Shown here: in pieces, positions 42,276-64,000 of the stretch
Layout of the letters: each line of letters starts with the position of its first letter
Position numbering within the stretch: the first letter of the stretch is position 1
Source of the DNA: an uncultured delta proteobacterium
GTDB lineage: Bacteria > Desulfobacterota > Binatia > UBA9968
DNA length: 64,000 bases
NCBI GenBank assembly: GCA_963771465.1
Contig: CAVYTU010000007.1
Location: 1 to 64,000, forward strand
Reading direction: 5' to 3'
Translations under genes and position numbers: made by a program
The notes under the pieces: model-generated
The model's input: only the letters and a program-made list of their open reading frames with translations
Database searches by the model: none
What the model was told of the DNA's origin: nothing

Positions 42276-43310
42276 CTAGCCGAAAATTTTTCGCGCGAAA
42301 TCGATCATCAACCAGCTCAACATTGCGATTGCCGCCGAAGCCGGGATCGTAAGAATCCACGCCCAGACGATTCTGCCCGCAACATTCCAACGCACCGAAC
42401 GCAGCCGGCGCAAGGAGCCGACGCCGATGATCGCGCCCGTGATCGTGTGCGTGGTCGAAACCGGGATGCCAAAGTGAGCCGCGCCGAACAGGGTGAACGC
42501 GCCCGCCGCTTCTGCGGCGAAACCGCCGATTGGCTGAAGGCGCGTAATGCGCGATCCCATGGTGTGGACGATGCGCCAGCCTCCCGATAGCGTGCCGAGT
42601 CCGATGGCCGCATGCGCCATTAAAACAATCCAAAACGGGATAAGGAGTTTGCCCATCTCGTCGCTGACCAAATAGCGATACTCGGGGACAATGAACAGCG
42701 CGCCGGCGATAATGCCCATGGTTTTCTGCGCGTCGTTGGTGCCATGGCCGAGACTGTAAGCGGCCGCGGAGATCAGCTGGCCGCGGCGAAAAATATGGTC
42801 GACGCTGGCCGGAATCGACCGCTTGAAAATGTTGAGGATCGCCACCAAATTCAGCATGCCTAAACCCATGCCGAGGAGCGGTGCGAGGACAATAAATATT
42901 AGCGTCATGATCCACCCACCCGGTATAATGATGCCGAGTCCTGCCTTGGCGATGCCAGCACCGGCATAACCGCCGATCAAAGCGTGTGACGAGCTGGTTG
43001 GCAGCCCGACGTACCATGTGATCAGATCCCAAACGATGGCGCCGATCAGTGCCGCGAGGATAACGTAGGAATCGACCTGTTTGACGTCGAGCAGGCCGCT
43101 GCCGATGGTTTTGGCCACCGCGGTGCCGAAGGTAAAAGCCGCAACGAAGTTCCAAAAAGCGGCCCAGACGACGCCTTGCAGCGGCGTCAGCACTCGCGTC
43201 GAGACCACGGTGGCGATGGAATTGGCGGCGTCGTGAAAACCGTTGACGTAGTCGAAAGCGAGAGCGACGACGATGATAAAAATAGTCAGGACCAGAACCG
43301 GATCAGCCAT
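42276..43310 (-). CDS. pit: PiT inorganic phosphate transporter
   Basis: NGFHDAANSIAT, GLPTSSSHA, HGTNDAQK, PVSTTH. Confidence 0.95.
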   Translation of the reverse strand: MADPVLVLTIFIIVVALAFDYVNGFHDAANSIATVVSTRVLTPLQGVVWAAFWNFVAAFTFGTAVAKTIGSGLLDVKQVDSYVILAALIGAIVWDLITWYVGLPTSSSHALIGGYAGAGIAKAGLGIIIPGGWIMTLIFIVLAPLLGMGLGMLNLVAILNIFKRSIPASVDHIFRRGQLISAAAYSLGHGTNDAQKTMGIIAGALFIVPEYRYLVSDEMGKLLIPFWIVLMAHAAIGLGTLSGGWRIVHTMGSRITRLQPIGGFAAEAAGAFTLFGAAHFGIPVSTTHTITGAIIGVGSLRRLRSVRWNVAGRIVWAWILTIPASAAIAMLSWLMIDFARKIFG

Positions 43311-43929
43311 TTTTGATTACCACCCGTTGCAGCACGTCGGCGACATCTTCCATTCGGTCGGTGGTTTCTTCGAGCATTTCGTAGATTTCTTTCCAGCGAA
43401 TCAAGTTGAATAGGTCGTCTTTGTGACTGACGATATCCACCAGCGCTTCACGTAAAACACGGTCGCCGTTATTCTCGATGGTGTTGATCTCCTTAATGTG
43501 TTCCGCGACCAGACGAAAGTTTTTCTTTTCGCGCAGGTTGTGCATGGCTTCGTGGAGTTCGATGGCGCCGCTGCGGATCAATTGCCCCAACTGCCTGGCG
43601 CGTTCCGTCGGCGCTTCGATGCGAAAGATGACCATGCGAACGGCGGTGGCTTCGATGGCGTCCATGGTGTCATCCAAAGCCGAGATCAGCCTTTCAATAT
43701 CTTCGCTGTCGAGTGGGATGATCAAGGTGTGCATCAATAGATGCATCACTTCGTGGACGACGAAGTCGCCGCGGTGTTCCAGCTCAGTGATGTGGGCCAC
43801 TTTCGCTTCCACATGCTCATAATTGTCTAATAGATCTTGCAAAGCATCGGCCGCTTCAACCAGGTTGGCGGTGGCTTTCTCAAACCAGTCGTAGAATTTA
43901 GTTTCAGCCGGCAAAAACTGAAATTTCAT
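43303..43929 (-). CDS. DUF47 Pit accessory protein
   Basis: LEHRGD, PLDSEDI, IENNGD, IRWKEIYE.LE..TD. Confidence 0.92.
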   Translation of the reverse strand: MKFQFLPAETKFYDWFEKATANLVEAADALQDLLDNYEHVEAKVAHITELEHRGDFVVHEVMHLLMHTLIIPLDSEDIERLISALDDTMDAIEATAVRMVIFRIEAPTERARQLGQLIRSGAIELHEAMHNLREKKNFRLVAEHIKEINTIENNGDRVLREALVDIVSHKDDLFNLIRWKEIYEMLEETTDRMEDVADVLQRVVIKNG

Positions 43930-44044
43930 TATGATCGCTCCGAAAATATTGTCGATTAAATGGAAATTAGAATTCGGGAACTGGAAACGCGATGATACTT
44001 AGCACGCGCTCAGCCGAGGTTCAACTGAATCTGGAAAATTTGGA

Positions 44045-46255
44045 TTAAGCGAACAAGGCTTCTACACGCCGGCGAATCTCATCTCGCACTTGGCGGAAAA
44101 TAGGCAGGATTTCTTCTTCGGTCCCAGCGGCCGCAGCCGGGTCAGGAAGCGGCCAGTGAGAACGTTTTACTGTGGCAGCTAAGGTCGGACAATGTTCATC
44201 GGCATCGCCGCAAAGCGTGATCACTTGGTCGATGTCGTTCAGCGGTACCTTATCGAGTCCTTTTGAAGATTGCATGGAAATGTCGACGCCGGCTTCTTGC
44301 ATTACGCGCACAGCGAGCGGATGAATGGATTTCGGATCGGTGCCGGCGCTGAAAAATCGATAACGGCCATTGCCGAGATGACGCGCGAAGCCTTCGGCCA
44401 TCTGGCTGCGACACGAGTTGCCGGTGCACAGAAATAATAAAGACTGTGCTGGCTGGGCCGGCGCGACAGCCGGCAAGCGTACGCGCACCGTGGTTCCTTG
44501 GCTTATCACGCTGTCGATGCTGAATTCTCCGGCGTGAGCCTGGACGATATATTTGACGATGGCAAGGCCGAGTCCGGTGCCGCCAAGATCGCGCGAACGC
44601 GCCTTGTCGACGCGATAAAAGCGTTCGGTCAAGCGCGGCAGATCTTTTTCCGGTATGCCGGTGCCCGTGTCTTTGACGACAATCTCCACCCGAGACGGTT
44701 CGCCGTTTCTGCTTTGCACCTCACTCGCAGTTAGCGAGACGGCGCCGCCCGCGGGTGTATATTTGATCGCGTTGTCGACCAGATTGATAAACAACTGTTG
44801 CAAGCGATCGGTATCGCCAAGAATTTCTGGCAGGTTATCGTCGACTCCCTGGCTCAGTTTCACGTTTTTCTTGGCCGCCTGGTCCCAGAAAACTTCCAAG
44901 ACCCGCTGAATCAATTGTCGCGGTTTTAACCCTTTTGACGATAACTGAATTTTGCCGGATTCGAGATCGGATAAAGTGAGCAAATCTTCGGTCAACCGGC
45001 TCAGCCGTTCGGCATGACGCTCGATAATTTCGAGGAATTGCCGGCGATCCTCGGCGTCAGCGGGCGGTGTGTGCAGCAATGTCTCGACGTACCCCCTAAT
45101 CGCGGTGAGCGGTGTGCGCAGTTCATGGGACACGTTGGCGACGAAATCCGATCGCATGTTTTCCAATTTCTTGATGTCGGTGATGTCGTGGAAAACCATG
45201 ATCGATCCCAACGACATGCCAAGTGGCGTTCTTAACGGCACGGCGTTGATGCGAAACCAGCGCGTGTCGTCGAGCTCGACTTCCTTGGAATAGGACGCGC
45301 TGGCAAAATTCAACTTGAGCACATCTTGCAGGATGTTGTGAATTTCCGGATGGCGTGAAAGTTCGAGCACCGAGATGCCGTGCAGATCTCGGTCCGTAGG
45401 GGCGTGAAACATCGCCTTAGCTTGGTCGTTGATCACCATCACTTTGCCTTTGGGGTCGAGCACCAATACGCCTTCGACCATGCAGCGCAGGATCGATTCG
45501 GTTTTTTCTTTTTCGCCGGTGATCTGCCCGATATCGCCCCGGAGTTTTCGGCTCATCTCGTTTAGGTGCCGTTCGAGCAGCGCGATCTCGTCGCGGCCGC
45601 CATGGGGAAAGAAGTTATCCGGAAACGTGCCACTGGTAACTTGTCCCGAAAAGCGCACCAAACGGCGCACGCGACGGCTCAGGTCGCGCGAAAAAGCCCA
45701 GGCCAACAGTAGCCCGATCGCCGATGCGACGATCAAGCCGGTGAGCAACGACCGGCGAAACGAGCCGATAACGGTCTCAACCTCTTTGAGCGCTGTGGCG
45801 ACGCGCACGACGCGTTCCTGTCCGGCGCCGGATTGGTGGAAGGCGCGATAGAGCAGATCATAGCCAACGGTTGTGCTGTAGCGGATCGCCGTGCCGGCGC
45901 CGCTTCGCCTCGCTTCGATCACCTCAGGCCGCGCAGCGTGATTTTCCATGCGTATCGACGGTTCTGAGGAGTCACCTAAGACGCGTCCGTCCATGGCGAT
46001 TACAGTGATGCGCGAGCCCAAGTCGCGCGCCAACTGTCGGCAAAGGGCGTCCAAGGGCTGTCCCTCGATATCGAATGGGAGCACGCGGCCGAGCAGATGG
46101 GCTTCCTGGTCCATGCGTGCGCTCAGGGTGGCGATGTGAAATTCGCGAACTTGATTGTTCGAGTAAAAATAGAAGCCGGCGAAGAGCAGCGCGACGACGG
46201 AGAAATAGGAAAGAAAGACCTTGGCGACTAGGCTATTGTTCCAAAGCCTTTTCAT
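44045..46255 (-). CDS. phoR: PhoR sensor kinase fused to a C-terminal ArsC/LMW-PTP domain
   Basis: TM-HAMP-PAS, FVANVSHELRTPLT, NAIKY, ERFYRVDKARSR..GGTGLGL, then [15 protein letters not shown]...TLCGDADEHCP. Confidence 0.93.
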   Translation of the reverse strand: MKRLWNNSLVAKVFLSYFSVVALLFAGFYFYSNNQVREFHIATLSARMDQEAHLLGRVLPFDIEGQPLDALCRQLARDLGSRITVIAMDGRVLGDSSEPSIRMENHAARPEVIEARRSGAGTAIRYSTTVGYDLLYRAFHQSGAGQERVVRVATALKEVETVIGSFRRSLLTGLIVASAIGLLLAWAFSRDLSRRVRRLVRFSGQVTSGTFPDNFFPHGGRDEIALLERHLNEMSRKLRGDIGQITGEKEKTESILRCMVEGVLVLDPKGKVMVINDQAKAMFHAPTDRDLHGISVLELSRHPEIHNILQDVLKLNFASASYSKEVELDDTRWFRINAVPLRTPLGMSLGSIMVFHDITDIKKLENMRSDFVANVSHELRTPLTAIRGYVETLLHTPPADAEDRRQFLEIIERHAERLSRLTEDLLTLSDLESGKIQLSSKGLKPRQLIQRVLEVFWDQAAKKNVKLSQGVDDNLPEILGDTDRLQQLFINLVDNAIKYTPAGGAVSLTASEVQSRNGEPSRVEIVVKDTGTGIPEKDLPRLTERFYRVDKARSRDLGGTGLGLAIVKYIVQAHAGEFSIDSVISQGTTVRVRLPAVAPAQPAQSLLFLCTGNSCRSQMAEGFARHLGNGRYRFFSAGTDPKSIHPLAVRVMQEAGVDISMQSSKGLDKVPLNDIDQVITLCGDADEHCPTLAATVKRSHWPLPDPAAAAGTEEEILPIFRQVRDEIRRRVEALFA

Positions 46256-46952
46256 CAAACTTGTAGCCGACACCACGCAGAGTGAGGATCCACTGGGGTT
46301 TACTATCGTCCTTTTCGATCGCTTTGCGCAAGCGGCGGATATGGACGTCGACGGTGCGCGGCGTGACGAAGGTGTCGCCGCCCCAGACGCGGTCGAGCAG
46401 TTGGTCGCGATTCAAAACCCGGTTGGGGTTTTGCACCAAAAATTTTAGCAACTCAAATTCCTTGAGCGTAAGTTTGACGGTCTGGCCACGGGCGAACACT
46501 TCGTAAGTCGAAAAATCGATTTTGAGCCCACCTTTGTCGTAGGCGGGCACCTGTTCCGCGTTCGCCGCGCCATTGGCGCGGCGCAGGATGGCGCGCACTC
46601 GCGCCACCAGCTCGCGTGGACTAAAGGGTTTCGCCAAGTAATCGTCCGCTCCCATCTCCAGGCCGACCACTCGATCGGCTTCTCCGGCTTTGGCCGTCAG
46701 CATGAGTATCGGCAGCTTTGCCGTATCGGGCCGCTCTCTCAGCAGCCTGCAGACTTCAAGGCCGGACAATCCCGGCAACATGAGATCGAGAATGACCAAG
46801 TTCGGCTTGTCGCGCTGAACGATCTTGAGGGCGTGCTCGCCGTCCTCGGCTTCCAGCACCTTGTAACGCTCCTGAACTAGATTGTAGTGAACCAGCTTAC
46901 GAATATCGGGTTCATCTTCGACGATGAGAATTTTATGCGCGTTTGTTGACAT
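46233..46952 (-). CDS. phoB: OmpR-family response regulator PhoB
   Basis: ILDLMLP, GADDY..KPF, RTVDVHIRRLR, RGVGY; lies in pst operon. Confidence 0.92.
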   Translation of the reverse strand: MSTNAHKILIVEDEPDIRKLVHYNLVQERYKVLEAEDGEHALKIVQRDKPNLVILDLMLPGLSGLEVCRLLRERPDTAKLPILMLTAKAGEADRVVGLEMGADDYLAKPFSPRELVARVRAILRRANGAANAEQVPAYDKGGLKIDFSTYEVFARGQTVKLTLKEFELLKFLVQNPNRVLNRDQLLDRVWGGDTFVTPRTVDVHIRRLRKAIEKDDSKPQWILTLRGVGYKFDEKALEQ

Positions 46953-46958
46953 AAACCC

Positions 46959-47651
46959 TTATACCGACGGTGGCAACTGTTTCATGTGACGGATGCTCTT
47001 GCCCTTGACCATGAAGATGACCATTTCGGCGATGTTGGTGGCGTGATCAGCGATGCGTTCGAGATATTTGGAGATCGAGCTGATTTTCGTCGCCCGGCTG
47101 ATGGTCTGAACGTTTTCCAGCATAAAGGTGAGCGTCTCGCGGAATATCTGCGAGTTGAGTTGATCGACCTCGTCATCGTCCTTACAAACCTTGAGCGCTA
47201 AATCGGTATCTTCCCGCACGAAGGCGTCGAGACTTTCGCGGATCATGCGTTGGGAAATGCGCGCCATCCTTGGAATATCGATATAGGGCTTGAGTTGCGG
47301 CTCTTGATTGAGTTCCAACGCGCGTTCGCAGATATTGACCGCCATGTCGCCGATCCGTTCCAAATCGGTGGTGATTTTTAGTCCGGTAGTAATGAAGCGC
47401 AGGTCGCGTCCCGCGGGTTGGTGCAGGGCTAAGAGCTTGATGCACTGATCATCGATGTTGACGTCGAGTCGGTTCACTTCATGGTCGCGTTCGATGATGA
47501 TATTGCACAGGTCGGAATCGCGGTCGACTAAAGATTTGACCGCTTTCTGAATTTGGTCTTCGACCAATCCTCCCATGTAGAGGATTTCTTCGCGGAGTTT
47601 GGTCAGCTCTTCCTCGTATCGTTTGTCGGTATGCTCGTTTAACATCGGCAT
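46959..47651 (-). CDS. phoU: phosphate signalling protein PhoU
   Basis: QPAGRDLR, DLERIGD, LERIADHATNIAE. Confidence 0.96.
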   Translation of the reverse strand: MPMLNEHTDKRYEEELTKLREEILYMGGLVEDQIQKAVKSLVDRDSDLCNIIIERDHEVNRLDVNIDDQCIKLLALHQPAGRDLRFITTGLKITTDLERIGDMAVNICERALELNQEPQLKPYIDIPRMARISQRMIRESLDAFVREDTDLALKVCKDDDEVDQLNSQIFRETLTFMLENVQTISRATKISSISKYLERIADHATNIAEMVIFMVKGKSIRHMKQLPPSV

Positions 47652-47656
47652 CTCCC

Positions 47657-48506
47657 TTATCCGAAACGGCCGGTAATATAATCTTCAGTCTGACGCTTTT
47701 CCGGCGCGGTGAAGAGCTTGCCCGTTTCGCCAAATTCTACCAACTCGCCCAGATAGAAAAAAGCGGTGTAGTCCGACACCCGTGCCGCTTGTTGCATGTT
47801 GTGGGTGACGATGACGATGGTGAAAGTGTCTTTCAATTCGTGAATCAGCTCTTCGACTTTTGCCGTCGAGATCGGGTCCAAGGCGGAGCAGGGTTCATCC
47901 ATCAGCAGCACTTCGGGCTCCACCGCCATTGCCCGGGCGATGCAGAGGCGTTGCTGTTGGCCGCCGGATAAATCCGCCGCGCTCTTGTGCAAGTTGTCCT
48001 TGACTTCGTCCCAGAGGGCGGCGCGGCGCAAGCTTTTCTCGACGACTTCATCGAGAAAATGGCGATTGTTAATACCGACGATACGCAGGCCGTAGACGAC
48101 GTTCTCATAAATGCTTTTTGGGAAGGGATTCCATTTCTGAAAGATCATACCGACCCGGCGTCGCAGCTGAATGACGTCGGTCGACGGATCGTAGATGTTC
48201 TTGCCGTCGAGTTTGATGCTGCCGGTCACTCGGGTGCCCAGTACCAGATCGTTCATCCGGTTAAGACAGCGTAAAAGAGTCGTCTTGCCGCAACCGGAAG
48301 GACCGATGAACGCGGTAGCCTTCTTAGGCGCGATTTCTACGTTGATGGACTTCAGAGCCTGTTTTTCACCGTAATAAAAGTCGAGCGTCTTCCACGTTAA
48401 TCAACGGCGCGGCGGCCGATGCGTCAATCATGGGTTTCGCGATGCTCTCTAGTTTCACTTTGGGTGTGTCGCGCCGAATCGATCCGGCCGCCTCCTGTAA
48501 GTCCAT
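47657..48506 (-). CDS. pstB: phosphate ABC ATPase, +1 frameshift near 48392
   Basis: [32 protein letters not shown]; N-terminus MDLQ..LINV in another frame with GGAGG RBS. Confidence 0.92.
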
Positions 48507-48541
48507 CTTACCTCCATCTATTGAGTTTTTCACGACAGCGC

Positions 48542-49450
48542 CTACCATTTTATTCGTTTGCGGAAGCGATAGCGGAAATAGATCGCAATGCCATTCATGA
48601 CCAGGGTCATGACCATTAGAACCAGCCCGGTCGCGGCGGCGTTCAAATGGAACTCCTGTTGCGGACGGGAAACCCAATTGAACATTTGAATCGGCATTAC
48701 CGTGAACGGAGACATCAGCCAGTCAAACGAAATAAAGGGAAACTCAGGTTTGACCGGCGCGTCGGGAAGAAAGGCGATAAAAGTCAACGCGCCGATGGTA
48801 ATCAGCGGCGCGGTTTCACCGATAGCGCGTGAGAGCGCGATAATGATCCCGGTCAATATGCCTCCCATAGAGTAGGGAAGCACATGGTCTCGGGTGGTTT
48901 GCCATTTGGTCGCTCCTAGCGCTAACGCGGCTTCCCTCATACCGGCGGGGACGGCGCGAATCGATTCGCGAGTCGCGACGATCACGATCGGTAGGATGAG
49001 CAAGGCTAAGGTGAGCCCGGCGGTAAGAATGCTCTGACCCAACCCGAGCTGATAAACGAACAGACCCAGCGCCATGAGGCCGTAGACGATCGATGGAACG
49101 CCGGCAAGATTGGCGATGTTAATTTCAATCAGACCGGTCAACCAATTTTTTGGCGCGTATTCTTCAAGGTACGCGCCAGCCGCGACGCCCATCGGCACGG
49201 CCGCTAAGGCGGTGACGAACATGATCAAACAGGTGCCGACCCAGGCTGAGAGTATTCCGGCCTGGCCGGCGAAACGGGAAGGGAAGGAAGTAAAAAATGT
49301 CGCGGTCAACCGGCCGGCGCCATCGGCGGCCAATTGCACGATCAGCGCGGCGAGCGTAATCAGGCCGACACAGGTCGCCAACAGACCTAGGATGCCGAAT
49401 AAGCTGTCCAGCCGTTTGCGACGATGATTATTTTTCTCAGCGGCAGTCAT
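48542..49450 (-). CDS. pstA: phosphate ABC permease PstA
   Basis: NLAGVPSIVYG, RAIGETAP. Confidence 0.95.
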   Translation of the reverse strand: MTAAEKNNHRRKRLDSLFGILGLLATCVGLITLAALIVQLAADGAGRLTATFFTSFPSRFAGQAGILSAWVGTCLIMFVTALAAVPMGVAAGAYLEEYAPKNWLTGLIEINIANLAGVPSIVYGLMALGLFVYQLGLGQSILTAGLTLALLILPIVIVATRESIRAVPAGMREAALALGATKWQTTRDHVLPYSMGGILTGIIIALSRAIGETAPLITIGALTFIAFLPDAPVKPEFPFISFDWLMSPFTVMPIQMFNWVSRPQQEFHLNAAATGLVLMVMTLVMNGIAIYFRYRFRKRIKW

Positions 49451-49451
49451 G

Positions 49452-50402
49452 TCAGTAAATCTCCCGGTAGCGTTTGCGCAAGAGATATCCGGCGATATTG
49501 AAGACCAAAGTCATTGCCATCAATGTCAGCCCGGCAGCGAATATACTCTGATAGGCGATGCTGCCGTGGGGCAGATCGCCCAAGCTCACCTGAACGATGT
49601 ACGCGGTGATGGTGGCGGCACCCTCCATTGGGTTCAGGGTTAAGTTAGGCTGTTGGCCGGCCGCAATGGCCACAACCATGGTTTCCCCTACCGCCCTGGA
49701 GAACGCCAAAACATAAGCTGACGCGATACCGGAAAAAGCCGAGGGGAAGAGCACCCGTAACGCGGTCTGGAGCCGCGTCGCACCCATGGCATAGGAGCCT
49801 TCGCGAATAGTTACCGGCACGGCTCTCATGGCATCTTCACTCAAGGAACTGACGTACGGGATGATCATAATGCCGATGACGACGCCGGCGCTAAGCATGT
49901 TGAAACCCGGCAGTTCAGGCAAAAGTTTTTGCAGTATCGGGGTTACGAACAGTAGCGCGAAGTAACCAAAAACTACGGTCGGCACGGCGCTCAAAAGTTC
50001 CAGGATCGGTTTTAAAACTTCTTTGACCCGACTATTGGCATATTCACTAAGATAAATGGCGATGGTGGTGCCCACGGGCAGCGCTAGTAGCAAGGCGACC
50101 GACGAGGTTACCACCGTGCCGGCGACCAAGGGCATGATGCCATAGTGGGGATTCTCGAATAACACGGTCCACTGGGTGTCGGTTAGAAAATCGACGATCG
50201 AGACGCTTTTAAAGAATGACCAGGATTCAGTAAGTAAAATTCCAACAATGCCCACCGTGATCGCGATGGAAGAGAGTGCGCACAAAAACATCGCAAACTC
50301 GATGATCCGTTCACGGATTTTTTGCATACTCAAATGCGCAGCCGACGCCTGCAGCGAAATCTTTCCTGCCAGATAGCCGGCTTGAGCCTGGTTGGCTTCC
50401 AT
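49452..50402 (-). CDS. pstC: phosphate ABC permease PstC
   Basis: ELLSAVPTVVFG, RAVGETM. Confidence 0.95.
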   Translation of the reverse strand: MEANQAQAGYLAGKISLQASAAHLSMQKIRERIIEFAMFLCALSSIAITVGIVGILLTESWSFFKSVSIVDFLTDTQWTVLFENPHYGIMPLVAGTVVTSSVALLLALPVGTTIAIYLSEYANSRVKEVLKPILELLSAVPTVVFGYFALLFVTPILQKLLPELPGFNMLSAGVVIGIMIIPYVSSLSEDAMRAVPVTIREGSYAMGATRLQTALRVLFPSAFSGIASAYVLAFSRAVGETMVVAIAAGQQPNLTLNPMEGAATITAYIVQVSLGDLPHGSIAYQSIFAAGLTLMAMTLVFNIAGYLLRKRYREIY

Positions 50403-50438
50403 ACTCTGGTTTCCTTCTATTCCTTAGAGACAGAGGAA

Positions 50439-50475
50439 GAATTGACGGGATACGGTCAAAGCATCCCGCCAATTC
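50439..50475 (-). terminator. hairpin between pstS and pstC (partial terminator or mRNA stabiliser)
   Basis: GAATTGACGGGAT...ATCCCGCCAATTC. Confidence 0.55.
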
Positions 50476-50487
50476 AACCGGGGGAGG

Positions 50488-51474
50488 TTAGAACTTCGCT
50501 TCTCGCTTCAGTAGGTCTTCGATTTTCACACCTACTTCGGCCTCGCCGCCGAACACGGTCCCGATCTTGTTCTTCTTCAAATGATCGAGGCCCACGCTAT
50601 AGGCGCTCTGGGGAAGCGCTACATATTTTACGTCTTTAACCAGCTTTGGAGCGTTTTTCAGATAGAACTCGACGAACTCCTTGACATCCGGCTTGTCCAT
50701 GGATTTTTTAGCAACGTAAATAAAAATCGGACGGGAGAGAGGTTGATAAGAGCCGTCTTCAACAGTTTTGGGTGACGGAACGACGGGACCTTTGCCGCCG
50801 TCGATCGCGACCGCCTTGAGCTTTTTCTGGTTCTCGACATAGTAAGCAAAACCAAAATATCCCAGAGCATTGCGGTCGTTGCCGATGCCTTGGACCAGGA
50901 CGTTATCGTCCTCGCTGGCGGTAAAGTCACCGCGACTGGACTTGGCCTTTCCGACAATCGCTTCGGTGAAGTAATCGAAGGTCCCGGAATCAGCGCCGGC
51001 ACCAAACAGTTTCAACGGCGCATTGGGCCAGTTGGGGCGGACTTGGTTCCAGTTTGTTATCTTGCCTTGCGCGCCGGGTTCCCAAATCTTCTTGAGCTCT
51101 GCCACGGTCATTGACCCGGCCCAATCATTTTTTGGGTTCACCATCACGGTCAATGCGTCATAAGCGACCGGTAGTTCAAAATACTCAATGCCGGCACCCT
51201 TGCATGCTTCCATCTCTTGCTTAAGGATGGGTCGCGAAGCGTCCTGGACATCGGTCTCACCGCGGCAGAACTTCTTGAAACCGCCGCCGGTGCCGGCGAT
51301 GCCGACCGTGACTTTGACTTTGCCTTTTTTAGATTTTTGAAATTCTTCGGCGACCGCTTCGGTTATGGGAAACACCGTGCTTGAGCCGTCGATCTGGATA
51401 ACTTGTGCCTTGGCCGCAGGCGGGGCGACCCCGAGGAGGGCGAGAAGTGAAACTGCCAATAATGCATTTTTCAT
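50488..51474 (-). CDS. pstS: phosphate-binding protein PstS
   Basis: [33 protein letters not shown]. Confidence 0.95.
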
Positions 51475-51511
51475 CTTTTTCTCCTTTTTCTACGAGTTAA
51501 TTAGCGATCCA

Positions 51512-51551
51512 ATGTTACGGTTATGTTACAAGCGTCTTAACGTTTGATGAA
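51512..51551 (-). promoter_or_regulatory. Pho-box-like 11-bp direct repeats
   Basis: ATGTTAC at 51512 and 51523, plus weaker units at 51534 and 51545. Confidence 0.7.
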
Positions 51552-51669
51552 TGCGACGGCTGCATCAAATCGTTTATCTCAATCATTCGACGGTGAACGT
51601 AAGCGCCAATTGTAAATGCTACGTGACGGTTGGATTAAGACCGAATTAAATAGGGACGGCCATCCATCG

Positions 51670-52668
51670 CTACGGTTGGGGTTCACGCTGGAGAAGCGTG
51701 TCAATTTTTATGGCGATTTCAGCCTTGCCACCGAAGGCAGTCCCGTAGCGTCCGATTCTTACTCGCTCGATAGCGAGCTCATATCCGCGAGTCGGCAGGG
51801 GCACATATTTCAATTGCTTGACGATTTGTGACGCCCTGGTGAGATAGAACGCGATGAACTGGCGCATTTCAGCCCCATCAAGGCTCTTTTTGCTGATGTA
51901 AATAAACAGCGGTCGCGACAGCGGTTGGTAGGTGCCATCTTCTACGCTCTTAACCGACGGCGACACCGGTCCGTTGCCGCCGTCGATGGGCACAGCCCGC
52001 AATTTCTTCTGATTTTGAACGTAGTAACCGTAGCCAAAATAGCCAAGCGCATCGGGCTCTTTGGCGATGGCTTGAACCAGAACGTTGTCGTCTTCGCTAG
52101 CGCTGTAATCGCTTCGGCTCGCTTTGGACTTACCGACGATCGCTTCAGTGAAGTAATCGAAGGTGCCTGAATCGGCGCCTGGAGCAAACAGTTTGATCAG
52201 CCGGTCGGGCCAAGCGGCGCGAATCTGTCGCCAATGGGTAATTCGACTCTGCGCCGCCGGTTCCCAGATTCTTTTCAGCTCGCCGATCGAAAATGAGTTC
52301 GCCCAATTGTTCTGGGGATTTACCAGTACCGTTAAAGCATCGTAGGCGAGCGGGATCTCGATGAATTGAACGCCGAATTTTTTGCAGAGATCCAGCTCGT
52401 GTTTGAGAATCGGCCGGGACGCATTGTTGATATTCGACACTTCAAGGCAAAAATTTCTAAAGCCGCCGCCGGTTCCTGATATTCCAATGGTCGCGGTGAT
52501 CGAGCCGTGCATTAGTTTTTGAAAGTCATCCGCGGCTTTCTTGGATATCGGATAGACCGTGCTCGAACCGTCGATTTTGATCGCTTGAGCGTAGAGCAGC
52601 GCCGGCAATATAAAGCCTAAAGCGGCGACAAAATTTTTTTGCAGCAATGCCTTTAGAAGCTCTTTCAT
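51670..52668 (-). CDS. pstS: second PstS paralog
   Basis: [29 protein letters not shown]. Confidence 0.92.
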   Translation of the reverse strand: MKELLKALLQKNFVAALGFILPALLYAQAIKIDGSSTVYPISKKAADDFQKLMHGSITATIGISGTGGGFRNFCLEVSNINNASRPILKHELDLCKKFGVQFIEIPLAYDALTVLVNPQNNWANSFSIGELKRIWEPAAQSRITHWRQIRAAWPDRLIKLFAPGADSGTFDYFTEAIVGKSKASRSDYSASEDDNVLVQAIAKEPDALGYFGYGYYVQNQKKLRAVPIDGGNGPVSPSVKSVEDGTYQPLSRPLFIYISKKSLDGAEMRQFIAFYLTRASQIVKQLKYVPLPTRGYELAIERVRIGRYGTAFGGKAEIAIKIDTLLQREPQP

Positions 52669-52694
52669 TTGTTTATGGCAATACTAGGCAACCA

Positions 52695-52786
52695 ATGTTA
52701 CGGCTAGGTTGCGCTCCGATGAATAAGCTCCGCGTGAATGGGGCTACAGCTAGGGATACGCGATTTTCGTAACAAGGATTTAACAA
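52695..52786. promoter_or_regulatory. divergent Pho-box-like repeats (pstS2 and Tmk-like pair)
   Basis: ATGTTAC/AGGTTGC at 52695/52706; GTAACAA/TTAACAA at 52769/52780. Confidence 0.6.
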
Positions 52787-52873
52787 TTGGCAGGATCGGG
52801 ACTGCTGGCGCTTCGCAGGCGACATTTGATAAGTTGGACCCGAATACGACGCGAATTGGAGGGTTAATTTCTC

Positions 52874-53608
52874 ATGGCTGGCGGCATGAAAATGTACGGC
52901 AAACATCGCTTTCCTGGGCGATTGTTCATCGTCGAAGGAATTGACGGCTCGGGTAAGAGCACGCAATTGATGCTGCTCAAGAAGTGGCTTGAGTCCGAGG
53001 GTTATGTCGTCTATTTCAGTGAGTGGAACTCTTCGCCGCTGGTTCACGATGTGACCAAGCGCGGCAAGAAAAAGAAAATGCTGACGCCGATGACCTTTAG
53101 CTTAATTCATGCTACCGATTTTGCCGACCGCACGGAACACCACATCATTCCGCCGTTGAAAGCGGGCGCCGTCGTGTTGGCCGATCGTTACGTTTATACC
53201 GCGTTCGCCCGCGACGTGGTTCGCGGTGTCAGTCCCAAGTGGGTCAGGGATCTTTACGCCTTCGCCGTCAAGCCGACCATCGCCTTCTACTTTCGCACGC
53301 CGCTGGACGTGTCCATGAAGCGAATTCTTGGTGGCCGTGATGCGATCAAGTATTACGAAGCGGGCATGGACCTCGGTCTCAGCGACGATTTGGAACAGAG
53401 TTTCAAGCTATTTCAAGGACATATCATCGAGGAATACGAAAAGATGGTCGATGAGTTCGGTCTCGTCGTGATCGACGCCACCCGTTCCATCGAAGAGCAG
53501 CAGGCGGAAGTGCGCCAGATTGTCGGCGATGCGCTGGCCGGAACGAAGAAAACCAAGGTGAGGCGATGGCTCGATTTAACTTCTTTGGCGAAGGGCTCCC
53601 GGATATAG
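52874..53608 (+). CDS. thymidylate-kinase-like protein 1
   Basis: EGIDGSGKST, ADRY, YEAGMD. Confidence 0.88.
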   Translation: MAGGMKMYGKHRFPGRLFIVEGIDGSGKSTQLMLLKKWLESEGYVVYFSEWNSSPLVHDVTKRGKKKKMLTPMTFSLIHATDFADRTEHHIIPPLKAGAVVLADRYVYTAFARDVVRGVSPKWVRDLYAFAVKPTIAFYFRTPLDVSMKRILGGRDAIKYYEAGMDLGLSDDLEQSFKLFQGHIIEEYEKMVDEFGLVVIDATRSIEEQQAEVRQIVGDALAGTKKTKVRRWLDLTSLAKGSRI

Positions 53609-54261
53609 ATCTCGCTGAGTTGAAGGGCAAGCTCATCGTCTTGGAAGGCACGGACGGTGTCGGCCGCTCGACTCAGATCGGGCTGCTCAAGCAGTGGCTC
53701 GAAAACCACGGCCATGCCGTGCTCGACACTGGTATGACTCGCTCGGCCCTGGCCGGCAAGCGGCTAAAGATTGCCAAGGAAGGCCACACGCTGGGCGGCA
53801 TCACGATGAGTTTGTTTTATGCCACCGATTTCGCCGATCGCTTGGAGAACGAAATCATTCCGGCGTTGCGCGCCGGCTTCATCGTGCTCACCGACCGATA
53901 CACTTATTCGCTGATGGCGCGGGCGATTGTCCGCGGCGCCGATCCGGAGTGGCTGCGCGAGGTGTACGGTTTCGCACTCATCCCCGACGCGATTTTCTAT
54001 TTGCGCGTGCAGATCGACGACCTGATCACGCGCGTGCTGCAAAGCCGCGGCTTTAATTACTGGGAGTCGGGCATGGATCTCCACATGGGCGAAGACATGT
54101 ATGAAAGTTTTGTCCGCTATCAGAAATGGCTGTTGGCCGAGTTCGATAAGATGGTCGAGGTTTATGGATTTCAACCCATCGATGCGGCGGGCTCGGTGGA
54201 GGATGTTTTCAATGACTTGCGTGACCGAGTCGACGCCGTGGTCGCGCGCAACGGCGCCTAG
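53566..54261 (+). CDS. thymidylate-kinase-like protein 2 (GRST P-loop)
   Basis: EGTDGVGRST, TDRY, WESGMD. Confidence 0.88.
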   Translation: MARFNFFGEGLPDIDLAELKGKLIVLEGTDGVGRSTQIGLLKQWLENHGHAVLDTGMTRSALAGKRLKIAKEGHTLGGITMSLFYATDFADRLENEIIPALRAGFIVLTDRYTYSLMARAIVRGADPEWLREVYGFALIPDAIFYLRVQIDDLITRVLQSRGFNYWESGMDLHMGEDMYESFVRYQKWLLAEFDKMVEVYGFQPIDAAGSVEDVFNDLRDRVDAVVARNGA

Positions 54262-55181
54262 CGCTTGGGGTGCGGCGCCTCGATCAGCGGTTTCCAGCGC
54301 ACCCAACATTCAGGGACTTTGGCGGCGTCGCTGAGAAGTTGATTGATTGTCGTCTGAGTGTGGAGTTTTTCTTTTTCCATTTCAGTGAGCAGAGATCGGC
54401 CGATGTCGGGATGATCGGCCAGGAAATTGGCCCGGCCGATGAATTCCGCAAGGTCGGCGATGAGCAGTAAGCGGTCATGCCAGTCGCCGAGAGCGTTTTG
54501 TAGTTCCTTGAGTGCTTGCACCAAGGGCTTGGCCTTGTTTTCTCCCAACTCTGCGAGTAGTTCGACCCGGTAGCGCAAACGTTTGCCAGCGATGCGGAAC
54601 TGGTGGAGGTGAACTTCATCGCTCTGCTCGGTCGCCGAAACGAACGCTTCCTGCCAAGCTGCCATCGATTTCGCGACTGCGTTTTCAAGTATCTTGACCG
54701 GATCGGCGTCGCTGTCGGCGGCTGCGATCAGCGCCTGCGCGCGGGTGATGAAGCTAAACAAATCGTGCCGGGCGATCTCGTGGCGTGCGCGCTCGAGTAG
54801 CCGGCCGCGTTGCGCTTCAAGCTCATCTTGAACCGCACCCCACGCAAGCTGCACTGCGGCTGCGCCGGCGCGCCGGCGTTTTTCCTTTATCAGATCGAGG
54901 TTGACGTCGAGATTGCGGCAAGATCCAAGCGCTTGGCGCACCTGGCGCAGAAGGCGCAGCACTTTTTTGATTTTTGGTGGTTTGGCTGCCGGATGGATTG
55001 CGCGCAGCACCTGCTGTAGACGACGACTCCCAACGCGCAGATGATGGATCGTTTCCGGATCGTCGTTAACCAGCAATTTTGGCATGAGGGTGGCGAACCG
55101 TTGCAGACGTTTGCGGGCGAGCTTTAGCAACCTTTTCTGGTTCGAGATAGCCGCCTCAGAGGGGTTTGCCGTAGCGTCCAT
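54258..55181 (-). CDS. CHAD domain polyphosphate-binding protein
   Basis: IHHLRVGSRRL, LG..RNLDV, LHQFRIAGKRLRY, Q..LGDWHD. Confidence 0.92.
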   Translation of the reverse strand: MDATANPSEAAISNQKRLLKLARKRLQRFATLMPKLLVNDDPETIHHLRVGSRRLQQVLRAIHPAAKPPKIKKVLRLLRQVRQALGSCRNLDVNLDLIKEKRRRAGAAAVQLAWGAVQDELEAQRGRLLERARHEIARHDLFSFITRAQALIAAADSDADPVKILENAVAKSMAAWQEAFVSATEQSDEVHLHQFRIAGKRLRYRVELLAELGENKAKPLVQALKELQNALGDWHDRLLLIADLAEFIGRANFLADHPDIGRSLLTEMEKEKLHTQTTINQLLSDAAKVPECWVRWKPLIEAPHPKR

Positions 55182-55189
55182 GGCTAGCT

Positions 55190-55714
55190 TCAATGTTTCG
55201 CCGCTCGGGTTCCGAGTAGACGCAGCTGTTTGGGCGCCAGGTGCCAATGCAGGATGGCTGGACTCGACGGCGGCAAGCCGTCGATTTCGATCCGGCAGAG
55301 CGATCCTTTGCGCAGATCGATTTTCATTCCATGGCCGCGGCTGCCGCAGAGCAACGAGCTTATCGTTTTACTGAGCAAAGGCTCATGACCGACCATGAGG
55401 AGGTGGTCGCGATCATGATAGCGCGTTAGGCTGAACAGCAGATGCTCCAGGTCACTTTCCGGCGCGAGGCCGGAGACTTCTTCGAGACAAGATTCCAGAC
55501 CCAGTGCGGTCGCGACAATTTCCGCGGTCTGGCGCGCGCGCAAGACCGGACTGGTCAAAATCCCGTCAAAGGCAACGTCTAGACGGCGAATTCCGCGTGC
55601 CGCCCGGCGTAGACGTTTAACGCCCTTAGGCGTGAGCGGCCGCTCGTTGTCACGCGTTACTGCGGGTTCGTCCGCCGCGACCGCGATACCATGACGCATG
55701 AGATAGAGATTCAT
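55190..55714 (-). CDS. sixA: phosphohistidine phosphatase SixA
   Basis: LMRHG, RPLT.KG, SP.LRARQTA, VGHEP. Confidence 0.92.
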   Translation of the reverse strand: MNLYLMRHGIAVAADEPAVTRDNERPLTPKGVKRLRRAARGIRRLDVAFDGILTSPVLRARQTAEIVATALGLESCLEEVSGLAPESDLEHLLFSLTRYHDRDHLLMVGHEPLLSKTISSLLCGSRGHGMKIDLRKGSLCRIEIDGLPPSSPAILHWHLAPKQLRLLGTRAAKH

Positions 55715-55746
55715 TGCGATTGGGCTTTCCTAACATTTCTTCCATG

Positions 55747-56187
55747 CTAAGAAATATTGCGCCAGTGATCGAGAAACAAGGCGAAAACTCTTTTGTCGAT
55801 TTCGTCGCGGTTCTCCCGAATCGCCTTTAGCGTTGGCTGGTCGTCACCGCCACTCGCCGGATGGTTTGGCACGTTCCAGTTTTCGACGCTGGCGCGACCC
55901 GGTAGATTCGAACATTTTTTGTGGGCGTCATCGAAGCTCACGACGAGATCGATCTCTTGGATCGGCACATCGGCCAAACCCTTACTACTTTGACCGAGCA
56001 TGCTGATGCCCAATTCTTGCATCGCTTGTACCACATGGAGAGGAATGACTCCTGGCTTGATGCCGGCGCTAAATATTCTCGTTCGCGGCGGCGCCAGATG
56101 CTTGGCGCTGGCTTCGGCAATCTGGCTTAAGCAGGTATTGTCTTGGCAAAGGAAGAGAACGTTACGTTGAATGCTTTCGCGGCGCAT
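55747..56187 (-). CDS. degenerate ArsC/LMW-PTP-fold protein
   Basis: VLFLCQDNTCLSQIAE, FSAG, MQELGI...QSSK, RDEIDKRV; P-loop Arg replaced by Leu. Confidence 0.8.
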   Translation of the reverse strand: MRRESIQRNVLFLCQDNTCLSQIAEASAKHLAPPRTRIFSAGIKPGVIPLHVVQAMQELGISMLGQSSKGLADVPIQEIDLVVSFDDAHKKCSNLPGRASVENWNVPNHPASGGDDQPTLKAIRENRDEIDKRVFALFLDHWRNIS

Positions 56188-56203
56188 TTCGACCTCCTAT
56201 TTT

Positions 56204-57754: not shown

Positions 57755-57810
57755 TGAAAGGTTTCATATCATATCGCGCCAGGGTAGCGAGCCCCATGTC
57801 GAGGACGATC

Positions 57811-57839
57811 GGTTAAATTTAGGTTAAATCTGAGTAAAT
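57811..57839 (-). promoter_or_regulatory. Pho-box-like 11-bp repeats upstream of ppx
   Basis: GGTTAAA at 57811 and 57822, AGTAAAT at 57833. Confidence 0.65.
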
Positions 57840-57873
57840 TCGAATAGTCCAAAAACGACCTCGCATTACTCGA

Positions 57874-58221: not shown

Positions 58222-58604
58222 CGTGAGCTAGCTCCTTGTGCCTTGATGCACGGGCGCGATTAAAGTTGCCCGGATCCTGCTGTGCCGCGCTCTTGGTTCG
58301 GGTTCGGCCGATTACATTTTGTCCGACCAAACTTTTGACAATATTTCTCTCCATGGCCGAGGCGCAACCCTTCCGGAAAGAAGGCAAAGCAGACGTGCCT
58401 TGAAGCTCGCAGCAATGCATTTGTCTATGAGAATCAGCAGTGACAATGTCAATCATCGTGCCACGCGGGCATAAAATGAAACATTCGCCCCGCTGCCCTC
58501 TTTCCTCCAGGGTCACGCCTCGATCGGTACGCTGTCATCCGTTGTCCTGGTTGCCTGAATGATGCGGACTAGCGGTGTTGGGTGGTGCTGAAAACGCCCG
58601 ACCG

Positions 58605-62136: not shown

Positions 62137-62195
62137 CCGCCGGCCGGTTCGAACTTTTCTGGGCATTGGCCGAAAGCCTCACTTGATCTGAATGT

Positions 62196-62217
62196 TATTT
62201 CGATGATAGTGGAAATA
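62196..62217. promoter_or_regulatory. ArsR operator-like inverted repeat
   Basis: TATTTCGA-N6-TGGAAATA abutting the arsR start. Confidence 0.65.
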
Positions 62218-62597
62218 TGGAAATAAGGGCGGCGGTAACGACTCTAGCGGCACTCGCGCAGGAAACCCGGCTGTCGATTTTCCGTCTCCTTGTCGAGGCG
62301 GGAAGAGACGGCGAATCAGTTGGGCGCATCGGCGAGAGTTTGAAAGTCGCCGGGGCTACGTTGTCGTTTCATTTAAAGGAACTGGCGCGGGCGGGCCTGG
62401 TGACTTCAAGGCAAGAGCGGCAGTTTATTTACTACACCGTCGATTTCGAACGCATGGCTGAGATCATGACTTTCCTTACCCAGAATTGTTGCCACGGCAT
62501 GCCGCAGGCTTGCCTCAACGTAGTCGAAACGGCCCTGGGAAGCTGCTGCCCACCTAGCCCATCTAAACCCAAGAAGAAGAAAAGGAGTCGATCATGA
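62217..62597 (+). CDS. arsR: arsenic repressor ArsR (C-terminal CC type)
   Basis: ALAQETRLSIFRLL, TLSFHLKEL, FLTQNCCHG...C. Confidence 0.92.
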   Translation: MEIRAAVTTLAALAQETRLSIFRLLVEAGRDGESVGRIGESLKVAGATLSFHLKELARAGLVTSRQERQFIYYTVDFERMAEIMTFLTQNCCHGMPQACLNVVETALGSCCPPSPSKPKKKKRSRS

Positions 62598-63055
62598 AGC
62601 GTTTTCACGTTCATGTCATCGTTAACGATCTCGATGCCAGCATTCAGTTTTATTCGACCGTGTTCGGCATCCCACCTACGGTTCTGAAGCCCGACTATGT
62701 GAAATGGATGGTGGATGATCCGCGGATAAATTTCGCGATTTCGACGCGCGGCAGTGCGCCGGGTATCGATCATCTCGGCGTGCAGGTGGATTCGGACGAT
62801 GAATTGAGTGAATTGCGTGAGCAAGCGAAGGCGGCTGAAGTCGTTGTGTTCGACCAGGCCGACGCGACGTGCTGCTATGCGCGCTCCGACAAGTATTGGA
62901 TGACCGATCCGCAGGGGATTCCGTGGGAGACTTTCCATACGCTCGACACAATTCCCCTTTACGGCAACACGGAGCTCGCGCAGACAAGCGCTTGCTGCAG
63001 TGCCGCGCCAACCGGCGAAACCGCGTCCAACAAATCCACTGCGTGCTGCGGGTAA
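62594..63055 (+). CDS. arsI: ArsI/CadI glyoxalase-fold protein
   Basis: [38 protein letters not shown]. Confidence 0.88.
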
Positions 63056-63066
63056 GGGAGACATTT

Positions 63067-63563
63067 GTGAAACAGGAAAATCTAAATGTTCTGTTTTTGT
63101 GCACAGGCAATTCGGCGCGCAGTATTATGGCTGAGGTCATTCTTAACTCCCTCGGAAAAAACAAATTCAAAGCTTTAGTGCGGGGAGCCATCCAGCGGGC
63201 AGCGTGAATCCACTGGCGCTGGCGCTTCTAGAAGAGTACCGCCTTCCAACCGAAGGCCTGCGCAGTAAGGACTGGAGTGAATTCTCCCAGCCGGACGCGC
63301 CGTTCATGCATTTCGTGTTCACGGTTTGTGATCAAGCCGCGGCCGAACCTTGTCCGGTCTGGCCCGGCCAACCGATGACCGCGCATTGGGGCGTTCATGA
63401 CCCGGCGGCGGTTCAAGGTAGCGACGAAGACAAGCGGAAGGCTTTTCTTAAGGCATATACGGAGCTTTATCGGCGCATATCGTTATTTATCAATCTGCCG
63501 TTCGGGACACTCAGCAAGCTCGCTCTCAAAGAAAAACTTGACGAGATCGGTCGCGCGCAATGA
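63067..63563 (+). CDS. arsC: thioredoxin-type arsenate reductase, frameshift near 63175
   Basis: [15 protein letters not shown]; adding one T restores AFSAGSHP; [24 protein letters not shown]. Confidence 0.9.
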
Positions 63564-64000
63564 GTTTTGGTCGGACAGCGACGGCAGAGGCGGTTGGAAC
63601 GGCCTTATTGCTGGCGATTGTGGTGGGTTCCGGCATCATGGGCGAGCGGCTCGCGCAGGGAAACGCGGCGATTGCTTTGTTGGCGAATTCGATCGCCACC
63701 GGCGCCGGGCTCTATACTTTGATTGTCATCTTCGGGCCAATTTCTGGGGCGCACTTCAATCCGGTTGTCTCAGCGGTCAGCGTGTGGCAGGGCGATCTTA
63801 CTGGAAGTCGCGGCATCGCTTATGCGTTGGCGCAAATCGCCGGCGCGTTCACGGGAGTGATTGCGGCGCACGCGATGTTCGGGTTGCCGATTGTTCAGGT
63901 CTCGGCGCATGTGCGCTCGACATTTGGAGAAGGATTCGGCGAAGTAATCGCAACATTTGGTTTGGTCCTGACGATCACTCTTACTTCGCGGTTTCGCGCT
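63560..64000 (+). CDS. MIP/aquaglyceroporin, AqpS-like arsenite channel (partial)
   Basis: Manual: AEAVGTALLL..VVGSGIMGE.L, LLANSIATGA, GPISGAHFNPVV. Confidence 0.9.
   Translation, partial: MSFGRTATAEAVGTALLLAIVVGSGIMGERLAQGNAAIALLANSIATGAGLYTLIVIFGPISGAHFNPVVSAVSVWQGDLTGSRGIAYALAQIAGAFTGVIAAHAMFGLPIVQVSAHVRSTFGEGFGEVIATFGLVLTITLTSRFRA

Follow-up and report, generated by a model that had tools for sequence, protein, structure and literature searches.

A histidine kinase of the phosphate (Pho) system that continues, within one reading frame, into an arsenate reductase raises the question of what an arsenate-recognizing enzyme is doing at the end of a phosphate sensor. Such a gene, phoR::arsC (44045..46255, minus strand), lies in a stretch of 64,000 nucleotides from an uncultured delta proteobacterium (GTDB lineage Bacteria; Desulfobacterota; Binatia; UBA9968), positions 1 to 64,000 of contig CAVYTU010000007.1 in assembly GCA_963771465.1, referred to here as the window. 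The perception of phosphate by PhoR is still argued, with PhoU, PstB and the PAS domain involved, and the exclusion of arsenate from phosphate uptake and signalling is known mainly from transporter selectivity and gene neighbourhood. With an arsenate-recognizing enzyme and a phosphate sensor in one polypeptide, the two problems meet. An original prediction, made from the DNA letters without database searches, had described the gene as an in-frame fusion of PhoR with a complete ArsC domain, serving as a built-in sensor or as a tethered reductase. The analysis described here establishes that the fusion is genuine. Judged from its sequence distribution, it is old and, among the genomes searched, limited to soil bacteria of a single family, and a comparable fusion is found in PhoU; the domain is possibly an active arsenate reductase.

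A kinase and an arsenate reductase domain in one reading frame

Translation from the ATG at 46255 gives 736 amino acids, and an in-frame GTG upstream at 46276 extends the protein to 743; residue numbers refer to the 743-residue frame throughout, and positions to the window. An identical database protein has 736 residues, matching ATG 46255, which is therefore the start used by gene callers. Two hydrophobic segments flank an extracytoplasmic sensor domain of the sCache_like family (PF16736; residues 47-145, 45842..46138; 31.4 bits), which is followed by a HAMP domain (residues 195-246, 45539..45694), a cytoplasmic PAS domain (residues 260-367, 45176..45499), the HisKA/DHp domain (PF00512; residues 374-441, 44954..45157; 82.6 bits) with the phospho-acceptor His384 in the motif SHELRTP, and the HATPase_c domain (PF02518; residues 487-603, 44468..44818; 104.6 bits), all assigned with Pfam on the minus strand. 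The ATPase domain ends in GTTVRVRLP, and an 11-residue linker, AVAPAQPAQSL (residues 603-613, 44438..44470), defined by reading the DNA and by alignment, leads into a thioredoxin-type ArsC/LMWPc domain (residues 614-743, 44048..44437). Neither a stop nor a frame change interrupts the DNA between GTTVRVRLP and the first ArsC strand. Translation of a free ArsC from within the gene, at the in-frame GTG of Val597 with AAGGAA 5 bases on its 5' side, was considered and rejected, since AAGGAA overlaps the codons of the conserved QGTTV and is indistinguishable from coding constraint.

The C-terminal domain is recognized by Pfam, by NCBIfam and by alignment to a protein of solved structure. PF01451 (LMWPc) matches residues 614-742 over profile positions 2-144 of 144 (E 3.3e-19; 70 bits against a gathering cut-off of 23.2), and TIGR02691 (arsC_pI258_fam) is the top NCBIfam model for the last 133 residues. 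Alignment to Bacillus subtilis ArsC (1JL3) is ungapped over 127 residues (E 6e-38), and the next matches are arsenate reductases of the same class. Catalysis in ArsC proceeds through a disulfide cascade in which Cys10, Cys15, Arg16, Cys82, Cys89 and Asp105 provide among them the nucleophile, the resolving cysteines and the general acid. Their equivalents in the fusion protein are C617, C622, R623, C689, C696 and D712, the first three lying in a P-loop, CTGNSCRS, that is identical to that of 1JL3. The fused domain thus shares the fold, the P-loop and the six catalytic positions with the ArsC proteins of B. subtilis and of Staphylococcus aureus pI258 (1LJL, 1JF8). It differs from them in its setting, as free ArsC is a protein of 130-140 residues while the domain described here forms the C-terminus of a membrane histidine kinase and is not encoded in an ars operon.

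Conservation was assessed in 108 near-full-length fused homologs, the remainder of 120 matches after removal of 12 that were either shorter than about 700 residues or identical to the window. All six catalytic residues are intact in 99 of the 108, and the other nine depart from the set at one position or a few. Taken singly, C617 is conserved in 106, R623 and D712 in 107 each, C689 in 104 and C696 in 105. Mean pairwise identity is 0.83 for the DHp domain, 0.76 for the ATPase domain, 0.66 for PAS, 0.64 for ArsC, 0.59 for the periplasmic domain and 0.23 for the linker. The ArsC domain is about as conserved as PAS, which indicates purifying selection on the domain. The linker measures 11-12 residues in 104 of the 108 proteins despite its unconserved sequence, and this constancy of length, together with retention of the resolving cysteines, shows selection on both the geometry and the redox chemistry. 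The invariant positions in the alignment of the 108 homologs are also found in B. subtilis ArsC, and no surface or motif that would set the fused copies apart was apparent. When the kinase core was modelled as a dimer (residues 368-606 of each chain) together with the ArsC domain (residues 611-743), without controls, the predicted complex scored 0.00 in both runs, a result that is given no weight in either direction.

The kinase portion is identified as PhoR by its context. Its top NCBIfam models are PnpS, WalK and PhoR, and its scores lie below the equivalog cut-offs in each case (371.5 against 400 for PnpS, NF046044; 305.4 against 334.2 for TIGR02966; 224 against 500 for NF053855; 195.4 against 390 for PRK11006). 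Like PhoR and PnpS, the protein has a PAS-HisKA-HATPase core with the SHELRTP H-box and is encoded directly after phoU-phoB and pstSCAB; it differs from them in its sCache-like extracytoplasmic domain, in the extra enzyme domain after the ATPase and in its position under the cut-offs. The gene order, which is the same in relatives, is pstS-pstS-pstC-pstA-pstB-phoU-phoB-phoR::arsC-duf47-pit. Because the kinase lies in this pst-phoU-phoB locus and is the sole match to itself at E<=1e-80 in the window's genome (G000; 6.9 Mb), it is the only PhoR of that genome.

Whether the junction is intact in nature was examined by comparison with sequencing data. Near-identical DNA occurs in soil and rhizosphere metagenomes, with 12 runs holding at least half of the sampled words. 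Contigs from three DNA runs of three studies (X1, X2 and X4) and from one RNA-library run (X15) were compared with the window over positions 44001-64000; X1 may be the source sample of the window assembly and so provides no independent support, while X2 and X4 come from other studies. No insertion or deletion (indel) is listed between 44001 and 44667 against any of the four runs, all of which have depth there, and a contig of X2, a soil metagenome from a separate study, bridges the junction from 44250 to 45148 with 0 gaps. Contigs of X15 also map to the locus, for example at 44564-44897; as DNA carry-over is possible in this library, they are not taken as evidence of transcription. The comparison did reveal errors elsewhere. 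In pstB (47657-48722, minus strand) the frame is broken in the window near 48385-48400, so that the N-terminal residues are read in a different frame from the Walker A motif and the remainder of the protein, and at 48385-48386 runs X1, X2 and X15 are one letter shorter than the window; this break is most likely an indel error of the window assembly. The phoX gene (60042-62025, minus strand) is split into open reading frames of 271 and 406 amino acids that overlap at 61210-61262, and as run X1 is one letter shorter at 61241, the split is probably an assembly indel as well. Since the indels in pstB and phoX were picked up, the method is able to see errors of this kind; the window contains a few of them but none at the phoR-arsC junction.

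The same architecture recurs well outside the window. In a search with the C-terminal 304 residues, each of the 120 best homologs (61-100% identity) combines PF01451 with PF00512 and PF02518, so that the fusion goes far beyond chance. An error of assembly or sequencing that joined two genes, the kind of event that the indels in pstB and phoX might bring to mind, is therefore excluded by the four runs without an indel at the junction, by the gap-free contig of X2, and by the presence of the architecture in 120 of 120 homologs from many sources and in some 36 genomes of the family. On each of these points, namely the single open reading frame, the complete signature with its CX5R loop and both resolving cysteines, and the identity of the kinase as the PhoR of the pst-phoU-phoB locus, the original prediction was borne out.

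Distribution and origin of the fusion

The homologs carry the source names 'Candidatus Binatia', 'Candidatus Binatota' and 'Deltaproteobacteria bacterium', with a few other labels of metagenome-assembled genomes (MAGs). No single match spanning both halves was found outside the window's family (f1) in species-representative samples of 201 genomes of its phylum and 151 of its class. Within the family 81 genomes were searched, and 70 gave a PhoR match. By hand tally, the ArsC domain is contiguous with PhoR in 36 of these, two (G391 and G427) have a frame change at the junction, and in 32 the protein ends after the ATPase domain. The 36 include one gene interrupted by frame changes (G415), two split over two contig ends (G425 and G387) and one with a linker of about 43 residues (G373). 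Three of the 70 genomes are flagged as unpublished, one fused (G370) and two unfused (G374 and G397); without them the counts are 35, 2 and 30 of 67. Fused and unfused states occur together within seven genera, and roughly half of the family genomes retain the fusion, across protein identities that fall to about 51-57%. It had been expected that canonical PhoR ends at the ATPase domain, which holds for the unfused sister genomes, and the fusion is far from absent among relatives, the outcome that would have spoken against it.

Deeper sampling with representatives at 50% identity yielded about 11 proteins crossing the junction among the best 150 matches to residues 543-743. One of these, P0170, is full length (740 amino acids) and the others are fragments. 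Among the fragments, P0179 (51% identity), with a longer linker and a shorter cysteine spacing, possibly represents a deeper branch. Free ArsCs, tandem LMWPc proteins and other fusions, for example LMWPc-NUDIX, make up the rest of the matches. Among the close relatives of the ArsC domain, P0201, P0252, P0175 and P0187 consist of LMWPc with a NUDIX hydrolase domain or of two to three tandem LMWPc domains. One genome of the window's own genus, G428, has two full-length phoR::arsC genes (on C141 and C202) that are 83% and 69% identical to that of the window, and these stem either from genuine gene duplication or from a bin that mixes genomes (contamination 6%).

The history of the fusion was traced in trees of its two halves. 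A tree of the kinase portion alone (53 family and 11 outgroup rows, with G370 left out; quick IQ-TREE, LG+G4) has fused forms on all deep branches of the family and requires at least 14 changes between presence of the domain or its remnant and absence of both. Such counts give no direction by themselves, and the direction is taken to be loss because remnants exist. In G403 two ArsC fragments (60 and 26 bits) lie in two frames 3' of the kinase stop, in G424 a 19-bit ArsC fragment lies between the kinase and DUF47, and in G206 one deletion took the ArsC domain, DUF47 and most of pit, leaving the last Pit residues. In a tree of 64 ArsC domains, all 29 fused copies group with the four split or cut ones (SH-aLRT 94) in a single clade that excludes the 17 free ArsCs of the family. 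Taken together, the trees and the remnants argue for a single fusion in the family ancestor, vertical descent with the kinase, and many losses. Since the domain was repeatedly lost from a locus that retained the kinase, PhoB and PhoU, PhoR works without it.

What preceded the fusion may be seen in G059, a genome from another family of the same phylum. At locus L115 (contig C10, 2992-5932) it has phoB, a phoR of 603 amino acids with the same domain order, and an arsC of 148 amino acids whose ATG overlaps the phoR stop, followed by a gene of the histone-deacetylase family. This operon likely resembles the arrangement that preceded the fusion.

A published description of a histidine kinase or PhoU fused to ArsC or LMWPc was not found in the full-text literature, a search whose scope did not extend to most subscription journals, and in this respect the architecture is undescribed in print, as had been supposed. 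Yet public sequence collections already contain hundreds of instances, to which automatic annotation has given labels such as 'PhoR', 'ATP-binding protein' and 'thioredoxin type arsenate reductase'. In a text search of a preprint on the Binatota (10.1101/2020.09.14.296780), arsenate appeared only in a reference title, and PhoR, phosphate and histidine kinase did not appear. The nearest known links are at the level of neighbourhood and regulation. Operons for pst and phn occur within arsenic islands that carry ars and aio genes (Li et al. 2013, PMC3834237), and PhoBR controls arsenite oxidation (Chen et al. 2015, PMC4563254); both tie arsenic handling to phosphate acquisition or its regulation. 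The genes in the proteobacterial aio/ars islands described there are separate, whereas the gene in the window is a covalent fusion inside the Pho locus, and a text search of PMC3834237 did not return the words 'fusion', 'fused' or 'phoR'.

Role of the fused domain

The reading preferred here, held tentatively with a probability of about 0.45, is that the domain actively reduces arsenate and that its production and its placement in the cell are coupled to the Pho, Pst and Pit machinery. A complete thioredoxin-coupled ArsC was fused once, at the base of the family, to the C-terminus of the single PhoR. According to this proposal, PhoR, PhoB and PhoU would go on reporting phosphate supply in the usual way. 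As part of PhoR, the reductase would be made whenever the Pho system is made, and it would be held at the membrane beside the Pst/PhoU/PhoR complex, encoded directly upstream of the gene for the Pit transporter. Transporters of the Pit type are a usual route of arsenate entry. Arsenate that enters in place of phosphate would be attacked by Cys617, a Cys617-Cys689 disulfide and then a Cys689-Cys696 disulfide would form with release of arsenite, and thioredoxin would reset the domain. The arsenite could then leave through the aquaglyceroporin of the nearby ars operon. We infer the enzymatic activity, the benefit from tethering or co-expression and the exit of arsenite through this MIP channel.

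The proposal draws on the conservation of the resolving cysteines, on the defects in the other LMWPc genes of this genome, on the operon-neighbour precursor and on a viable free-standing descendant. The last of these is found in G368, where a copy of the fused domain stands on its own with its motif set intact, as would fit a self-sufficient enzyme. Arsenic genes placed next to phoBR or pst in other lineages (see below), and the published arsenic islands with their pst and phn operons, also speak for it. The defective genes are two. An ars operon of arsR, a glyoxalase-fold gene, arsC and a MIP aquaglyceroporin that runs past the window end (62217..64000, plus strand) is located 16 kb from the fusion gene. 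Its LMWPc-type arsC (63067-63563, plus strand) shifts frame next to a run of A, at about 63150-63170, and a contig of X1, possibly the window's own sample, spans 62055-63389 with 0 gaps and thus has the same break, which seems to be real and not an assembly error. The second is an LMWPc-like gene (55747-56187, minus strand) situated between a SixA-like gene and ppx. Its product is a 42%-identical paralog of the fused ArsC domain with CQDNTCLS as its P-loop, in which Leu replaces Arg16, and with Phe in place of Cys82. In at least 17 family genomes, with and without the fusion, a match of 62-90 bits likewise occurs on the phoR contig at a distance of about 10 kb, a distribution that suggests a conserved pseudo-enzyme of the Pho island. 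A single match to PF03960 (the glutaredoxin-type ArsC/Spx family), on another contig of the genome, contains an internal TGA. By its motifs, then, the PhoR-fused domain is the genome's only LMWPc-type arsenate reductase with an intact set. Neither Acr3 (TIGR00832) nor ArsB (PF02040) was found in the genome (99% complete); the one candidate seen there for the exit of arsenite is the MIP channel encoded in the ars operon.

Several points weigh against the proposal. A sensor kinase is normally a low-copy protein and would be an odd vehicle for a detoxifying enzyme. The domain scores slightly under the equivalog cut-off of TIGR02691 (164.6 against 174.3 bits, and 159.3 bits in the context of the whole protein), which the fused relative G361 reaches with 179 bits. 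A mere tether would have no need of a linker fixed at 11-12 residues, and the constant length points to a defined contact with the kinase. If the fused domain replaced a housekeeping enzyme, free ArsC would be predicted in the unfused genomes, and the contrast is weak: by hand tally, a free TIGR02691 match of at least 100 bits occurs in nine of 32 unfused and five of 36 fused family genomes, although an earlier sample of 19 had suggested complementarity. Finally, the same fold attached to PhoU mostly lacks the nucleophile yet is kept at full length, and so at least in that case it would have a non-catalytic role at the Pho complex.

The PhoU fusions form a case of their own. P0268 is a PhoU with a C-terminal LMWPc domain, and PF01895 is combined with PF01451 in at least 45 clusters of the 120 relatives that match it best. 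Full-length matches occur in six of 301 sampled genomes of the window's phylum, two of them in its class. At two of the six corresponding loci (L187-L192), namely L187 and L192, the gene directly follows pstA-pstB, and only there were pstA and pstB detected. The motif CX5R[ST] and the cysteine pair are kept in two of 48 PhoU-LMWPc proteins; most have Asp or Gly at Cys10 and have lost Cys89 while keeping Arg16 and the full domain length. The catalytic set is complete in P0268, P0358 and L192, and L187 has the P-loop and the Asp with a shorter cysteine spacing. Judging from these residues, most PhoU-fused copies are probably non-catalytic. The proteins P0268 and P0320-P0367 (source name 'phosphate signaling complex protein PhoU') resemble the PhoR fusion in that an ArsC-like fold is attached C-terminally to a component of the same signalling complex, and differ from it in the carrier, in stemming from an independent event and in having mostly lost the catalytic Cys. 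The fold has thus been attached at least twice, independently, to members of one Pho signalling complex.

Alternatively, the ArsC domain could be a signalling input, such that arsenate or the redox state biases PhoR and detoxification is secondary. This explanation, which is less probable than the preferred one but a serious rival to it, would have arsenate turnover or the thioredoxin pool set the Cys689-Cys696 disulfide and a rearranged loop, and the change would be passed through the short linker to alter the reach of the ATP-binding domain to His384. Such a PhoR might discriminate between arsenate and phosphate, or tune Pho output according to the redox state. A linker whose length is held while its sequence is free would be expected for such a device, as would conserved resolving cysteines, which create a long-lived oxidized state. 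Further support comes from the independent joining of the fold to PhoU, the partner of PhoR, where the catalytic residues are mostly lost and the domain is kept, and from the arsC-like gene, regulator and PAS kinase that form a unit at locus L085 (see below). There is also a precedent for thiol-disulfide control of a histidine kinase in ArcB, which is silenced by oxidation of cytosolic cysteines (PMC3364231); the cysteines belong to ArcB's own linker and PAS region and form intermolecular bonds, with no enzyme domain involved. Against a signalling role, the domain was lost at least about 13 times in the family while the kinase, PhoB and PhoU stayed, and Pho signalling is to that extent independent of it; nor did any distinctive surface or motif of the fused copies stand out relative to B. 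subtilis ArsC. Of the two functions originally proposed, a built-in sensor or a tethered reductase, both are consistent with the selection on redox chemistry and geometry, and what loses ground is a pure phosphate sensor, since Cys82 and Cys89 would not be needed for one. An active reductase and a sensor are compatible with each other, as an enzyme whose oxidized state also biases the kinase would satisfy both.

A broader and more doubtful idea is that the ArsC/LMW-PTP (low-molecular-weight protein tyrosine phosphatase) fold is a recurrent, unrecognized module of the Pho complex, represented by the PhoR-fused copies of this family, the PhoU-fused copies of several other lineages and the dead ppx-linked paralog. 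The PhoR copy would then be a thioredoxin-reset arsenate thiol switch, by which the sensor could separate arsenate from phosphate within the cell, and the non-catalytic PhoU copies would be cytoplasmic oxyanion sensors.

It is also conceivable, though improbable, that the fusion is a passenger: a near-neutral loss of the stop codon between the operon neighbours phoR and arsC would have joined two halves that persist by descent, remain independent and gain nothing from the joining. The phoR-arsC pair of G059, with its overlapping stop and start, speaks for this, and the fusion is found in one family only among the genomes searched and has often been lost or split. An accident alone would not, however, lead one to expect survival to about 51-57% identity in roughly half of the family genomes, a linker of constant length, purifying selection on the domain, or a second and independent fusion to PhoU.

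Least probable of the functional explanations, with only a slender chance of being correct, is that the domain acts as a phosphatase on phospho-PhoR, phospho-PhoB or another phosphoprotein and does not act on arsenate. The PF01451 fold and the CX5R loop are features of low-molecular-weight phosphatases, and the ArsC of pI258 has weak phosphatase activity, but the homologs retain two residues that phosphatases of this fold can do without, Cys82 (in 104 of 108) and Cys89 (in 105 of 108), and the closest solved relatives are all arsenate reductases. Moreover, H384, E385, L386, T388 and P389 are invariant in the 108 homologs, and the kinase thereby retains its own H-E-x-x-T motif, which we take to be its HisKA phosphatase motif.

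The outcome matters in different ways for the leading possibilities. If the domain only detoxifies, the preferred reductase proposal would add a modest case of arsenic defence coupled to the Pho system, in uncultured bacteria that are abundant in soil; a signalling domain would constitute a new input mechanism for a textbook two-component system. The cytoplasmic fragment, being soluble and expressible, offers a direct experimental handle, and fused, split and unfused versions exist in nature for comparison.

The surrounding Pho island and related loci

The fusion gene is embedded in an island of phosphate genes. Upstream of it, on the same strand, a phoB-type response regulator gene (46233..46952) overlaps the phoR start by 23 bases at its 3' end, and is preceded by phoU (46959..47651; Pfam) and by pstB, pstA, pstC and two pstS genes (47657..52668), the frame break in pstB near 48385 being peculiar to the window. 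Downstream, a PhoU_div/DUF47 gene (43303..43929, minus strand) begins 115 bases 3' of the fusion gene, and no terminator-like site was found in those 115 bases; it is followed by a gene for a Pit-type (PHO4) phosphate transporter (42276..43310, minus strand; Pfam).

Loci that place an ArsC-like gene near Pho genes as a separate gene were also encountered. In a Vicinamibacterales MAG (L052, 2717-9946) phoB-phoR is followed by a methyltransferase gene, an LMWPc ArsC gene and a MIP gene, with pit and a metallophosphoesterase gene at the same locus, and in a MAG labelled 'Proteobacteria' (L080, 2017-7872) the genes are LMWPc, DUF155, phoB, phoR and pstS. In a Thermodesulfobacteriota MAG (L085, 4989-7202) an arsC-like gene is translationally coupled to genes for a phoB-like regulator and a soluble PAS kinase, and no ars or pst genes were seen near this unit. 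An LMWPc ArsC gene converges on the 3' end of an unfused phoR in G233, G411 and G359, with a MIP gene beside it in G233. An ArsC-like gene lies within 5 kb at four of 80 unfused PhoR-like loci of other phyla, against a rough expectation of fewer than one, a mild excess that is not leaned on. At nine of the best free ArsC loci of the phylum (L005, L006, L008 and L010-L015), a kinase was found nearby only at L013, and with a weak match (36.8 bits); free ArsC genes are thus not generally linked to PhoR.

Further along the island of the window are a CHAD gene (54258-55247), a SixA-like His_Phos_1 gene (55190-55714) that, like ppx (56204-57754), adjoins the LMWPc-like gene described above, and then a universal stress protein gene and phoX. 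Midway through the Pho island, between pstS and this CHAD-SixA-LMWPc-Ppx cluster, the opposite strand carries two adjoining, overlapping genes of the thymidylate-kinase family (52874-54261, plus strand), which encode proteins of 244 and 231 amino acids.

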